Source: an uncultured bacterium
Lineage (GTDB): Bacteria; Auribacterota; JACPWU01
Length of the DNA: 32,000 bases
Direction: 5' to 3'
Assembly: GCA_964640155.1 (NCBI GenBank)
Contig: CAZXEQ010000001.1
Coordinates: 546,403-578,402, forward strand
The translations under genes were made by a program, and so were the position numbers. The notes below the pieces were generated by a model, which had not been told where the DNA came from, did no database searches, and saw nothing but the letters and a program-made list of their open reading frames with translations. Below are positions 2,539 through 29,516 of the stretch, one piece after another (within the stretch, counting starts at the first letter, position 1; every line of letters begins with the position of its first letter).

Positions 2539-3822
2539 CTACCCTTTGTATTTGACAGCCATCATTGTAACATCATCTGGAATCGCAAATGACCCAGAAA
2601 AATGATTTATTTCATCTAAAACTGAAGTAACAATTTCTTTTGGCAAAGAGTTTGAAGGCAATTGGCTTAAGCATTTTTCGAAACGCTTCCAGCCAAATTC
2701 TTCACCTTCAGGATTTCGTGCTTCAATCGTACCATCTGTTAGGAAAATAAGGGTATCCCCTTTTTTAATGGGGATCTCCTTTGTTGGAAATTGTGTTCGA
2801 GATAAAATTCCAAGAGGAAGAGCATCTCCTCCAGAAATTTTTTCAAAACCTTTTTTATTTTCTCGATAAACATAAAGAGGTAAATGCCCCGCATTTGCAA
2901 TTTCTATCTTAGATTGATAGGTATCCACAACGACATAACATAAGGTAACAAACATTCCCATCGTAGATCTTTTCACCAAGCGGTTATTTAGCTTCTCAAG
3001 CATTTTAGACATATTCTGATCTGAAAAAGCTTCTAGACGAAATTCACTTAAAGTTCGAATCATATAAAGAGAGGCTGGTATTCCTCTACCCGAAACATCA
3101 CCAATCAAAGCTCCCCATCGACCTTTACCTAAAGTTAAAAAATCGTAAAAATCTCCTCCTATCTCTTGCGCAGCTTTTGTTTTAACAAAAGCTTCTATAG
3201 TTTTAAAAAGAGGAAATTCTTTTTTAAGGAAATTGTCTTGAATTTGTTTTGCAATCAAAAGACTTTGTTCTAAAGCTTGTTGTTCAAGCTTTGCTTGGGT
3301 AAGGCGAGCATTCTCAACAGCAATCGCGGCAAGACTAGAGAAAGCACTTAACAACTCTAAATCAGAAGAAACAAAAACATCCTTATGAATAGAATTAATC
3401 GCTTCTAAAACACCAATAATTTTTCCATGAACACACATCGGAACACATAAAATAGATTTGGTTTTAAAACCGGTGGTTTGATCAAAACCAGAAAAAAACC
3501 TTTTGTCTTTTTGGGCATCCGGAACCAAAAGTGGTTTACCTTTTTCGGCAACCCATCCTGCTATTCCTTGTCCAACTTTGAGAGAAAACTTTTTCTTAAC
3601 CTCTTCGCCTTTGTCTCCCAAAGCGACTTGGCAATCTAAAAGACCGGTTTTGGGATTAAGAATAAGAAGACTTGAAGCCTGAGCATCCACAACTCGTTTG
3701 GCAATTTCCATCACCAAATCAAGGACTTCGTCAATCTGTAAAGATGAAATCACAAGCGTACTTGCTTCAATGAGACCATAGAGTTTCTGAATCTGCTGCT
3801 CAAGCTCTTGAATGCGATTCAT
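2539..3822 (-). CDS. GAF-domain PP2C (SpoIIE/RsbU-like) serine phosphatase
   Basis: 427-aa ORF. N-terminal coiled coil plus GAF-like region, C-terminal PP2C motifs GGDFYDF and FLTDGTIEA. Confidence 0.8.
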   Translation of the reverse strand: MNRIQELEQQIQKLYGLIEASTLVISSLQIDEVLDLVMEIAKRVVDAQASSLLILNPKTGLLDCQVALGDKGEEVKKKFSLKVGQGIAGWVAEKGKPLLVPDAQKDKRFFSGFDQTTGFKTKSILCVPMCVHGKIIGVLEAINSIHKDVFVSSDLELLSAFSSLAAIAVENARLTQAKLEQQALEQSLLIAKQIQDNFLKKEFPLFKTIEAFVKTKAAQEIGGDFYDFLTLGKGRWGALIGDVSGRGIPASLYMIRTLSEFRLEAFSDQNMSKMLEKLNNRLVKRSTMGMFVTLCYVVVDTYQSKIEIANAGHLPLYVYRENKKGFEKISGGDALPLGILSRTQFPTKEIPIKKGDTLIFLTDGTIEARNPEGEEFGWKRFEKCLSQLPSNSLPKEIVTSVLDEINHFSGSFAIPDDVTMMAVKYKG

Positions 3823-3853
3823 GCATGTTCCTAAGAGGGTTTGACTTCAATTT

Positions 3854-3882: not shown

Positions 3883-3900
3883 AGGAAAAGAAAAGTGATT

Positions 3901-3973
3901 AAGGGCTAAGAGTTAAGGGCTATGGGCTAAAAAACATCGAATTTTTCTAGCCCTTCCCTCTTAGCCCCTAGCC
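3901..3973. repeat. Imperfect 73-bp palindrome built from GGGCTA/TAGCCC units
   Basis: GGGCTAAGAG (3903-3912) is perfectly complementary to CTCTTAGCCC (3958-3967). AAGGGCTA (3915-3922) pairs with TAGCCCTT (3948-3955). AAAAA pairs with TTTTT around the loop CATCGAA. Confidence 0.6.
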
Positions 3974-4121
3974 GATAGCATGTATAAAAGTGTGTACTTT
4001 ATGTATGCGGGTGACACTCGGCGGGGAGCCCCGCCGCGCGCAATTTTTCATGAGCACGGTGGGGCTGACGAGTGTCAGGCCCTGCTACTTTTCTAAAAGT
4101 ACACACTTTTATGTACAACAT
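3974..4121 (+). mobile_element. 148-bp MITE-like element, copy 1 (GC-rich structured core, inverted arms)
   Basis: Perfect 17-bp inverted arms at 3984-4000 and 4096-4112. GC-rich core at about 4007-4085. Exact 9-bp direct repeat CCCCTAGCC at 3965-3973 and 4122-4130. Homologous to the copies at 23644-23791 and 29081-29228. Confidence 0.7.
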
Positions 4122-4150
4122 CCCCTAGCCCTGTTTTTCTAAGTAATCTT

Positions 4151-23643: not shown

Positions 23644-23791
23644 ATACCTGCACATAAAAGTGTGCATCTTTATGGATGCGGGTGACACTTAGCGGGGAAC
23701 CCCGCCGCGCGCAACTAATACTCGAGCACGGTGGGGGGCCAAGTGGCAGGACCCGCTACTTTGTAAAAGACCACATTTTTATATACACAGT
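23644..23791 (+). mobile_element. 148-bp MITE-like element, copy 2 (most divergent)
   Basis: Boundaries set by homology to copies 1 and 3. Core GCGGGTGACACTTAGCGGGGAACCCCGCCGCGCGC ... CACGGTGGGGGGCCAAGTGGCAGGACCCGCTAC. Begins 2 nt after the yraN stop. No convincing flanking duplication. Confidence 0.6.
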
Positions 23792-23887
23792 GCAATGGAT
23801 TAATATCATTTTTTCTATGACTGACAAAGGGTAAATTACGATATACTTACATTTCTAACATTCAAGTGATTTGGGGAATTCACTAAA

Positions 23888-25420: not shown

Positions 25421-25791
25421 AGTTAAAAAACTTTGTATCCGTTGTCCTATTTTTCTTTTTCCAGATTTCCTCCTTCGTGTTTCACGTCAAAAATGATACA
25501 TTACTTTCCAGAAGGAATATTCATCGAATGAACTTAGCCCATATTGAATCACTCAAGGCCCTTATTTTTAAAACGTCCGACTTGAATTCTTTGCGAGCAG
25601 AAATTCTCAAAGAGTTTGATCATGTCATTCACTTCCTGAAAGATCGTCTTGAAAAAGATGTTCATCATCTTGCAAAAGAGGTTCAAGAACTTCAACGCAC
25701 CCCTCTTGAAAATCCAAAAATACGCGAAATTATCGGCCATATTGTTATGGATTTTGGCGAACTTCGTAAAGACCTTGAAACTGAAATCTAG
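25411..25791 (+). CDS. Hypothetical small helical protein (start uncertain)
   Basis: 126-aa ORF overlapping the comM stop by 10 nt. An 87-aa version from ATG 25528 ([12 protein letters not shown]) with an upstream AAGGAA looks more plausible. No motif recognised. Confidence 0.4.
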
Positions 25792-28671: not shown

Positions 28672-29058
28672 ATGAAAAGAATAGTGTGTATCGTTATAAA
28701 TTTTATCCTCCTCTTTAATCTTCCCCCATTTGTTTTTTCTGATTTTGGATATCGAGACCGAGTCGAGTATCACAACAAAATCAAAAAACAAAAAACCATA
28801 CAAACTCAAAAAAGAGAAATAGCAGAAGGGATAACTACCTCAGGGATCATTTCAAACATCAATCTTGTTAAAAATATTTTTACTCTTATTGACTCTAATG
28901 AAAAACCTTTAGTGATTTTAATACCTGAAGTCTCCATTTGGAAAGAAGGAAAGGAAACAACTGTTCAGACTTTAAAAGTAAATCAGAAAGTCAAAGTCAC
29001 TTACTACACTTTCAACCAAGAAAACTCAGCCCAATTTATTGAAATTCTGTCTGACTAA
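28672..29058 (+). CDS. Small secreted hypothetical protein
   Basis: The track ORF starts at 28612. ATG 28672 gives a signal-like N-terminus, MKRIVCIVINFILLFNLPPFVFS. There is no obvious RBS. Confidence 0.45.
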   Translation: MKRIVCIVINFILLFNLPPFVFSDFGYRDRVEYHNKIKKQKTIQTQKREIAEGITTSGIISNINLVKNIFTLIDSNEKPLVILIPEVSIWKEGKETTVQTLKVNQKVKVTYYTFNQENSAQFIEILSD

Positions 29059-29080
29059 ATCTACTCTTTTTAAAGCGTTG

Positions 29081-29228
29081 GATATTGCAATTAGAAGTGT
29101 GTCCTTTATAATACGGGTGACACTCGACGGGGAGCCCCGCCGCACGCAATTTTTAATAAGCACGGTGGGGCTGACGAGTAGCAGGACCCGCTACTTTTTT
29201 CAAAGTACACACTTTTATGTACACCGCC
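29081..29228 (+). mobile_element. 148-bp MITE-like element, copy 3
   Basis: Core is about 90 percent identical to copy 1 by eye. Exact 8-bp direct repeat AAGCGTTG at 29073-29080 and 29229-29236. Starts with GATA, like copy 1. Confidence 0.7.
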
Positions 29229-29254
29229 AAGCGTTGAATCTAAAAACAATCTGT

Positions 29255-29283
29255 TTGCTTCATCTGATGTGATTTGATACAGT
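29255..29283 (+). promoter_or_regulatory. Candidate sigma70 promoter upstream of tatA
   Basis: TTGCTT (29255-29260), 17-nt spacer, TACAGT (29278-29283). Confidence 0.3.
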
Positions 29284-29339
29284 TCTCTCATTGTATGGGC
29301 TCCTAAGCCTGATTGTATCAGCAATTTAAAGGGGTTATT

Positions 29340-29516
29340 ATGATGCCAGGATGGTCTGAGTGGATTGTCATTCTTCTTATTATTCTTCTTCTTTTTGGGG
29401 CCAAAAGGCTTCCTGAAATTGCCAAATCCTTGGGCAAAGGAATTCAAGAATTTAAAAAGGCCATGAAAGGTGAAGACGAGGGAAAGCCCAAAGATTCTAA
29501 TGAAGAGCGAAAATAA
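29340..29516 (+). CDS. tatA: Twin-arginine translocase subunit TatA/E
   Basis: From ATG 29340: [41 protein letters not shown], a TM helix plus the FG-K-LPE amphipathic motif. The track start TTG 29313 is less likely. Confidence 0.85.

Follow-up and report, generated by a model that had tools for sequence, protein, structure and literature searches.

The third of three copies of a short repeat in the window (the whole 32,000-nt stretch of DNA analysed here) is a genuine insertion of a small non-coding element, accompanied by an 8-bp duplication of its target in the spacer between a gene for a 148-aa protein and tatA. This copy is probably a MITE-like insertion, a member of a non-autonomous family that is moved in trans and built on a conserved hairpin domain. 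Members of the family have moved recently in two or more distant lineages.

An exact 8-bp repeat at shared boundaries

A repeat finder detected the central part of the element three times in the window, at 4005-4117, 23676-23788 and 29111-29223, always on the + strand, and a covariance model run over the window recovered these three copies only (Table 1). Copy 3 begins GATATTGC and finishes TTTTATGTACACCGCC. Read directly, the sequence runs ...TTTTTAA-AGCGTTG up to the left boundary, GATATTGCAATTAGAAGTGTGTCC...CACACTTTTATGTACACCGCC between the boundaries and AAGCGTTG-AATCT... beyond the right one. Since the bases around the two occurrences of AAGCGTTG differ (A versus C before, G versus A after), the repeat of copy 3 is exactly 8 nt. 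Copy 1 begins GATAGC, finishes TTTTATGTACAACATC and has CCCCTAGCC on either flank; taken as the 8-mer CCCTAGCC, its repeat places both boundaries precisely where copy 3 has them, 14 nt 5' of a conserved AAGTGTG at the left end and 10 nt 3' of a conserved TTTTAT at the right end. Copy 2 had no repeat at the homologous boundaries (CTCATAAT versus CAATGGAT). Over the whole element copies 1 and 3 are 85% identical, with an exact 22-mer in common in their right arms, while copy 2 is 75–78% identical to either; its status as the most diverged copy fits a greater age.

The chance of an exact flanking 8-mer at fixed spacing is 4.8e-5 per position in the window. With the boundaries left free within 40 nt on each side, shuffling gave p values of 0.018 for copy 3 and 0.005 for copy 1. 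Repeats at identical boundaries in two copies are far beyond chance. These results bear out most of a preliminary description of this DNA, which had reported an exact 8-bp repeat around copy 3 at boundaries homologous to those of copy 1, had noted that both copies begin GATA (GATAT in copy 3) and had judged such a match unlikely by chance. Its degenerate left arm in copy 3 was seen again, and its estimate of a core about 90% identical to copy 1 agrees with the 90% measured over 113 nt. Of the 8–9 bp that it allowed for the duplication, 8 bp stands and 9 bp does not, the ninth matching C of copy 1 being a chance extension. Its central proposal, a MITE-like insertion by transposition, is supported by the homologous duplications together with the empty orthologous site and the second filled/empty pair described below.

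Table 1. Positions of the three element copies and their flanking duplications in the window.
Feature	Positions	Strand	Evidence or remark
Left target-site duplication, copy 1, CCCTAGCC	3966-3973		
Element copy 1, 149 nt, best preserved, tips GATAG...ACATC, core 4009-4082	3974-4122	+	Fold -69.7 kcal/mol, z -7.05; covariance model 88.8 bits
Right target-site duplication, copy 1, CCCTAGCC	4123-4130		
Element copy 2, 149 nt (homologous boundaries), most diverged, core 23680-23753, without duplication	23644-23792	+	Covariance model 81.7 bits
Left target-site duplication, copy 3, AAGCGTTG	29073-29080		Direct reading and statistics
Element copy 3, 148 nt, tips GATAT / CACCGCC	29081-29228	+	Covariance model 75.6 bits; without counterpart in the orthologous site of L003/L004
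A+T-rich left arm, copy 3, degenerate, pairs with right arm	29081-29114	+	Fold
G+C-rich core, copy 3, GGGTGAC...CCCCGCCGCACGCAA...AAGCACGGTGGGG...CAGGACC, helices P1, P2 and P3	29115-29188	+	62% G+C versus 38% for the window
Right arm, copy 3: CGCTAC (closes P1), T run 29195-29200, 22-mer AAAGTACACACTTTTATGTACA 29202-29223, tip CCGCC	29189-29228	+	
Right target-site duplication, copy 3, AAGCGTTG	29229-29236		Direct reading and statistics

The cores of the three copies are 62–69% G+C and their arms 31–36%, against 38% for the window, and their fold z-scores range from -4 to -7. The arms, of ~25–35 nt, pair with each other, and the tips of copy 1 read GAT...ATC. The T run after the P1 helix (GTAGCGGG...CCCGCTAC) reads TTTTTT in copy 3, TTTTCT in copy 1 and TTTGT in copy 2; each copy has the orientation of its neighbouring genes. 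Reading frames over the copies are short and are not kept from one copy to the next.

Several other features of these loci were recorded. First, two open reading frames, 29039-29272 (+) and 29106-29447 (-), of 77 and 113 aa, traverse copy 3, the second of them overlapping the start of tatA; as artefacts of the repeat, both risk being annotated wrongly as genes. Second, a promoter scan found a promoter-like TTGCAA-N16-TATAAT (10/12 matches) within the left arm of copy 3 at 29085-29112, which would place a transcription start at the core; copies 1 and 2 do not conserve it, and it is therefore probably a chance match. Lastly, an imperfect palindrome of TAAGGGCTA / TAGCCC units (TTAAGGGCTAAGAGTTAAGGGCTATGGGCTAA ... 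TAGCCCTTCCCTCTTAGCCCCTAGCC) lies 5' of copy 1 at 3900-3973. It is followed by TGTTTTT in the reconstructed empty site, copy 1 having inserted at its 3' edge, and an arm related to it occurs at 25534-25564.

Empty orthologous sites in relatives

Syntenic loci were located via TatC homologues; the genome of the window itself was present in the searched collection as short Logan contigs from run SRR8893623. The closest relative found was MAG GCA_041906865.1, titled Candidatus Auribacterota (L003 and L004, 85% TatC identity), followed by Logan SRR22387960 (L005, 71%), a MAG labelled 'Chlamydiae bacterium' (L006 and L007, 63%), and Logan and JGI contigs (L043, L044 and L045, 57–61%). The spacer from the homologue of the 148-aa gene to tatA measures 127 nt in L003/L004 versus 282 nt in the window, and the additional 155 nt correspond, within 1 nt, to the element plus one repeat. 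The flanks of L003/L004 align with the window on the left up to TTTTAAAG and on the right from AAAAACAATCT. The empty site reads AAAGTGACTTATTACGT and lacks an exact AAGCGTTG, indicating that the 8-mer itself has diverged. The preliminary description had anticipated an empty site with a single AAGCGTTG in relatives: the site is empty in the closest relative, but AAAGTGACTT is read there instead of the 8-mer, and the comparison is clean only in the UBA10199 pair below. With the closest relative ~15% diverged in TatC protein, the missing AAGCGTTG is not decisive. The syntenic loci of the seven relatives, 67 kb in all, gave no match to the covariance model of the element.

At the site of copy 2, the UPF0102 gene and comM are 245 nt apart in the window, 84 nt in L005 and 11 nt in L043, the two relatives having no element there; the flanks of copy 2 were too diverged to align with L005 or L006. 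A concatenated query of the RsbU-like phosphatase and ComM, aimed at where copies 1 and 2 would lie in the closest MAG, yielded no homologue above 58% identity. The empty sites in relatives make insertion in the lineage of the window the parsimonious reading. In L006 (4700-5200) the same UPF0102–comM spacer is taken up by a gene for a Vsr-like endonuclease (DUF559) that has G/C-rich inverted repeats on its two sides (CCCCTCCCCTTGTGGGAGGGG... / ...CCCTCCCCACAAAGGGGGAGGG); it is a further insertion at this spot, unrelated to the element.

A second filled/empty pair in UBA10199

Six contigs (L008, L010, L030, L032, L036 and L039) carry an identical core. Proteins of L008, L010 and L030 fall into 90%-identity clusters with proteins of the NCBI entry 'Deltaproteobacteria bacterium PRO3', a lineage that the label of an ENA bin places in phylum UBA10199. 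The obg–proB spacer is filled in L010 and empty, at 2–15 nt, in 15 other assemblies of the lineage. The filled site reads ...TTTTG-CAAGTATG, then the element (AATAGATC, a 24-bp stem, the core, the stem, GCACCGAA), then TAAGTATG-CGGTCGG..., and the empty sites read ...TTTTG-CAAATATG-CGGTCC... or ...TTTT-TAAGTATG-CGAGCGG.... The target 8-mer, which includes the proB start codon, occurs twice around the element in L010 but a single time in each empty assembly. The duplication in L010 is 8 bp with 7/8 positions matching, and the inserted unit amounts to 136 nt plus 8, long stem included. At the boundaries defined by the duplication, the tips of L010 match those of the window copies as 5'-RATAG...CACCGNN-3': the 5' tips are GATAG in copy 1, GATAT in copy 3 and AATAG in L010, and the 3' tips are CACCGCC in copy 3, CACCGAA in L010 and L030, and CACCGCT in L039. 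For the mutS–glnD spacer of L030, no alignment with L055 could be obtained.

Orthologous loci within this lineage (L008 versus L052; L036 versus L039) are 96–99% identical in flanking coding and promoter DNA, and their cores differ by 1–2 nt. Within the element (L008:322-445 versus L052:1291-1410; L036:2645-2770 versus L039:959-1053), the middle 12–17 bp of the stem are unrelated between strains and perfectly paired in each, and immediately beyond the element there are patches of 27–45 nt that are likewise unrelated. Compared by eye, the L008 arm is ~75% like that of its paralogue L032 and ~60% like that of its orthologue. Plain cut-and-paste does not account for these differences between strains. 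Judged from the sequences, it is plausible that the stems would be replaced through ectopic conversion by paralogous copies, followed by correction of one arm against the other.

A 74-nt domain conserved across lineages

Searches beyond these lineages showed how widely the core is distributed. A strict core pattern matched one genome contig (L001, from MAG GCA_041906865.1) and no metagenome contig; a relaxed pattern matched 35 metagenome contigs, ~31 of them real, and no viral contig. BLAST of the core and of the whole element against plasmid and phage collections gave no match. The family consensus can be written GGGTGG-C(P2)-GGGGG-n-CCCCGCCGCGCGCAG-(variable loop)-CGAGCACGGTGGGG-g..-(P2')-GACAGGACCC, and the element is divided into a left half of RATAG, arm and GGGTGG... 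and a right half of ...CAGGACCC, arm and CACCGNN. The apical domain of 74 nt comprises helices P1, P2 and P3, a GGA bulge, a G·A mismatch, a G-run junction and an invariant G·U pair. Some 45 positions are invariant across contigs of 44–80% G+C, and P1 reaches 25–32 perfectly paired bp in several genomes with entirely different sequence. The inverted-repeat arms are the extended basal helix of the conserved hairpin, and their sequence differs in other genomes; the tips of the hairpin, RATAG and CACCGNN, do not form an inverted repeat.

Base pairing was assessed in a model-based alignment of 37 copies. Standard pairs made up 90% of pair cells versus ~40% when the partner was slid, and the covariation score was 0.30 versus 0.04–0.06 in the slid controls. 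P1 and P2 co-vary strongly; P3 is almost invariant, and a diverged copy in L042 (1429-1529, +) shows a compensatory change in it from CCG/CGG to CGG/CCG. Variable pairs included 44 G·U versus 24 A·C, and the + strand folds on average 3.5 ± 1.2 kcal/mol better than the minus strand, which together identify the + strand as the folding strand. A mutual-information scan for pseudoknot or ligand-pocket-like pairs returned the hairpin helices only. Rfam 15 at the gathering threshold gave no relevant family in the window and 20 related loci and, at E values up to 10, generic miRNA-like hairpins only. ARAGORN called no tRNA or tmRNA, and our literature search found no description of this element.

Flanking 8-mers with at most one mismatch were found for 20 of 32 copies, versus 9.6 expected. 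L028 has an exact flanking repeat immediately next to P1 (TCTTCCGC), L032 has one as well, and that of L013 is the 12-mer CCCGCGTATCCG; several family members have no flanking duplication. The neighbours are unrelated housekeeping genes (obg/proB, mutS/glnD, sucC/sucD, recR, bioB, coaBC, mraY), members occur in both orientations with ~40% antisense to adjacent genes, and clustering of neighbour proteins across all loci revealed no recurrent partner gene. A Pfam scan of ten previously unannotated ORFs of the window detected ordinary genes (MlaE/F, secretin, Pol I, CoaE, Rho) and no transposase, as did precomputed Pfam annotation of genes at the syntenic loci (PrmC, TrmD, RNase HII, ComM, TatAC, MFS). 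Such a distribution is that of a non-autonomous element scattered through the genome; a cis-regulator or an RNA gene present once would not show it.

Individual members showed further variation. First, the core of L001 (7408-7551, -) starts 2 nt after the stop of a porin-like ORF, and its P1 uses the stop codon (GTAA/TTAC); A+T-rich arms are absent, and a weak outer pairing, GGAGTAAAAAT / ATTTTTAATCC, extends into the coding sequence. This copy is oriented like its neighbouring genes. Second, L018 carries at 3764-3849 (-) a miniature second copy that keeps P1, the internal loop and P2 without P3 and lies ~320 nt away from a full copy whose P1 sequence is the same, and L042 carries two copies in inverted orientation ~130 nt apart. 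Third, an additional hairpin of ~40 nt stands between the 3' strands of P3 and P2 in L013:1840-2001 and L026:199-359. Fourth, a member in L034 (3832-3934), with an 8-bp P1 and no arms, fills the space from the stop of sucC to the start of sucD within the operon. Lastly, L025, L038, L039, L053 and L054, all public metagenome or Logan contigs, have an end within the element, which indicates that the repeats fragment short-read assemblies.

Mechanism and alternative explanations

Under the favoured explanation, copy 3 is a MITE-like insertion: a staggered cut in the spacer between the 148-aa gene and tatA duplicated 8 bp of target, and the mobilising enzyme would act in trans, its gene lying at another place in the genome. 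The fixed 8-bp duplication makes a DDE-type transposase the simplest candidate. This machinery would recognise the conserved tips and probably the apical domain too, whereas the arms would need only to pair; the basal helix is free in sequence yet keeps its pairing, being A+T-rich in the genome of the window, and the short conserved tips are single-stranded. P1 followed by a T run, together with co-orientation with genes, suggests that transcripts probably form a very stable hairpin, which in the window copies could end or stabilise the upstream mRNA. Several features speak against this explanation. The loci examined yielded no transposase or autonomous partner, copy 2 and several other members carry no duplication, the closest relative has diverged too far at its empty site to show a single AAGCGTTG, and the stems differ between UBA10199 strains at one locus. 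For a DDE-type MITE it is also unusual that the extreme tips do not form an inverted repeat. Moreover, a 74-nt interior conserved across phyla, combined with stems of free sequence, is not predicted by internal deletion of an insertion sequence (IS). We also entertain, tentatively, the idea of an undescribed kind of mobile element spread across phyla, in which the structured 74-nt domain and not terminal inverted repeats would be the functional heart, as a transposition handle or an RNA module, and the arms would be rewritten in concert.

The alternative that survives best, a possible though not a favoured one, overlaps in part with the MITE-like explanation. It holds that the host profits from the core and retains it as a functional module of structured RNA, which might serve in processing, protein binding, termination or stabilisation, and that mobility is only its mode of spread. 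The ~45 invariant positions, the covariation in P1 and P2, the G·U excess and the strand energy bias are in line with it, as are the UBA10199 orthologues, whose cores differ by 1–2 nt while parts of the adjoining spacer cannot be aligned, and the co-orientation of the window copies and L001 with genes, with a T run after P1 in the window subfamily. However, ~40% of members are antisense to adjacent genes, no gene association is conserved, G+C-rich members lack the T run, no Rfam family matches, and the covariation reveals no pseudoknot or ligand pocket beyond the hairpin; gene conversion among copies could also hold the core uniform without host selection. Several specific RNA roles were considered and set aside. 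A hammerhead-like CUGANGA has no GAAA and no Rfam match, a K-turn would have the wrong bulge polarity, and a CsrA site and an SRP Alu-like domain were dropped for want of support. An intrinsic terminator as a family-wide role was rejected as well, there being no T run in the G+C-rich members and no call by the scanner.

Movement as a folded single strand, in which a structure-specific recombinase of the HUH/Y1 or integron-integrase style reads the hairpin base and the apical domain, is unlikely. Such a route would suit arms that are free in sequence but conserved in pairing, the conserved non-palindromic single-stranded tips at the hairpin foot, and the strand-asymmetric core with its conserved bulges, but an 8-bp duplication in two independent filled/empty pairs argues against it, and neither neighbour clustering nor the Pfam scan of the window placed a gene for such an enzyme near the copies.

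Still less probable is a SINE-like retroposon, a hairpin RNA inserted by a trans-acting reverse transcriptase through target-primed reverse transcription. The conserved part is indeed a structured, strand-specific RNA-like domain, target duplications are present and the element is non-autonomous. Target-primed insertions usually vary in duplication length, though, and here the duplication is a constant 8 bp in both lineages; the copies form no 5' truncation series and have no A-rich tail, both ends are intact in either orientation, and the examined loci contained no reverse transcriptase.

An immobile element, with old paralogous RNA genes or repeats, a chance repeat of AAGCGTTG and loss from relatives by deletion between short direct repeats, is strongly disfavoured and very improbable: the lack of an exact AAGCGTTG in the empty site of L003 and of a duplication around copy 2 would agree with it, but 8-mers at identical boundaries in two copies (set against 4.8e-5 per position), at least seven relatives without the element at two different sites, and 15 empty versus one filled site in UBA10199, with the target 8-mer once in the empty ones, all contradict it.

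Significance

Copy 3 provides a clean, statistically sound case of recent transposition in uncultivated PVC-type (Auribacterota-like) bacteria, whose mobile elements are, to our knowledge, essentially unstudied. It also introduces a family of mobile hairpins with a strongly conserved, covarying core that is common to Auribacterota-like bacteria and UBA10199 and absent from Rfam 15. Should the core prove to be a recognition handle, an uncharacterised transposase or mechanism would be implied; should it prove to be an RNA module, it would represent a new structured RNA spreading by transposition. In practical terms, such elements break metagenome assemblies and produce spurious ORF calls.

Comparison with known systems

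As far as we know, REP/RAYT, IS200/IS605 and attC recombination leave no target duplication; the 8-bp duplication thus excludes REP/RAYT, IS200/IS605 derivatives and attC-type sites as families; recognition could still be structure-specific. The element resembles attC sites, IS200/IS605 and PATE in conserving stem pairing over sequence, in its conserved unpaired bases and in its strand asymmetry. In attC, however, the base is conserved and the centre variable, the reverse of the arrangement here, and neither neighbour clustering nor the Pfam scan of the window revealed an integrase or TnpA nearby. PATE derived from IS200/IS605 carry a subterminal hairpin at each end and insert 3' of a fixed tetra- or pentanucleotide without duplication. 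Here, a single hairpin spans the whole element, and the targets (AAGCGTTG, CCCTAGCC and NAAGTATG) differ and are duplicated.

REP/REPIN sequences, mobilised by RAYT tyrosine transposases, are described in PMC3733652 as GTAG- and CGTC-tagged palindromes, dispersed in extragenic DNA of many phyla. The likeness extends to hairpins that are scattered outside genes in many phyla, lie for the most part 3' of genes and are probably transcribed, and to an unpaired conserved tag at the foot of the palindrome, the window copies beginning GTAGCGGG on the minus strand. GTAG at the helix foot is nevertheless found only on the minus strand and only in the window subfamily. A REP is a simple palindrome of 20–40 bp, whereas the element has an asymmetric three-helix core of 74 nt plus arms, and no RAYT gene was seen with it in the examined loci.

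Its covarying helices and invariant junction nucleotides are reminiscent of Rfam-type RNAs such as riboswitches, ribozymes and protein-binding RNAs, but the element scores below the gathering threshold of every family across the window and 20 loci. SINE-like elements differ from it in that it has no A-rich or simple-repeat 3' tail and its duplication is fixed at 8 bp.

The closest likeness that we draw is to the prokaryotic MITEs, of which Correia/CREE in Neisseria, ERIC/IRU in enterobacteria, Nezha and Chunjie are examples, all <500 bp and non-coding (PMC10969869). Measured by the MITE definition given there, the element agrees in size, non-coding nature, direct repeats, copy number and stem-loop, and has inverted repeats only in the form of arm pairing. 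Like MITEs, it is short (148–149 nt), non-coding, intergenic, multi-copy (three in 32 kb) and present or absent between strains, its transcripts are predicted to form stable stem-loops, and its flanking direct repeats are found in younger copies and fade in older ones. It differs in that the part conserved in distant lineages is the asymmetric apical domain of 74 nt and not terminal repeats, in that its arms vary freely between copies and genomes and its extreme tips are not inverted repeats, and in that its core is G+C-rich, not A+T-rich. Correia elements duplicate TA, in contrast to the 8 bp observed here, and we know of no parent IS for the element. As a MITE-like insertion the element is ordinary; it goes beyond that in having a core that is shared across phyla and lies outside Rfam 15, conserved but asymmetric tips, and arms that evolve in concert.
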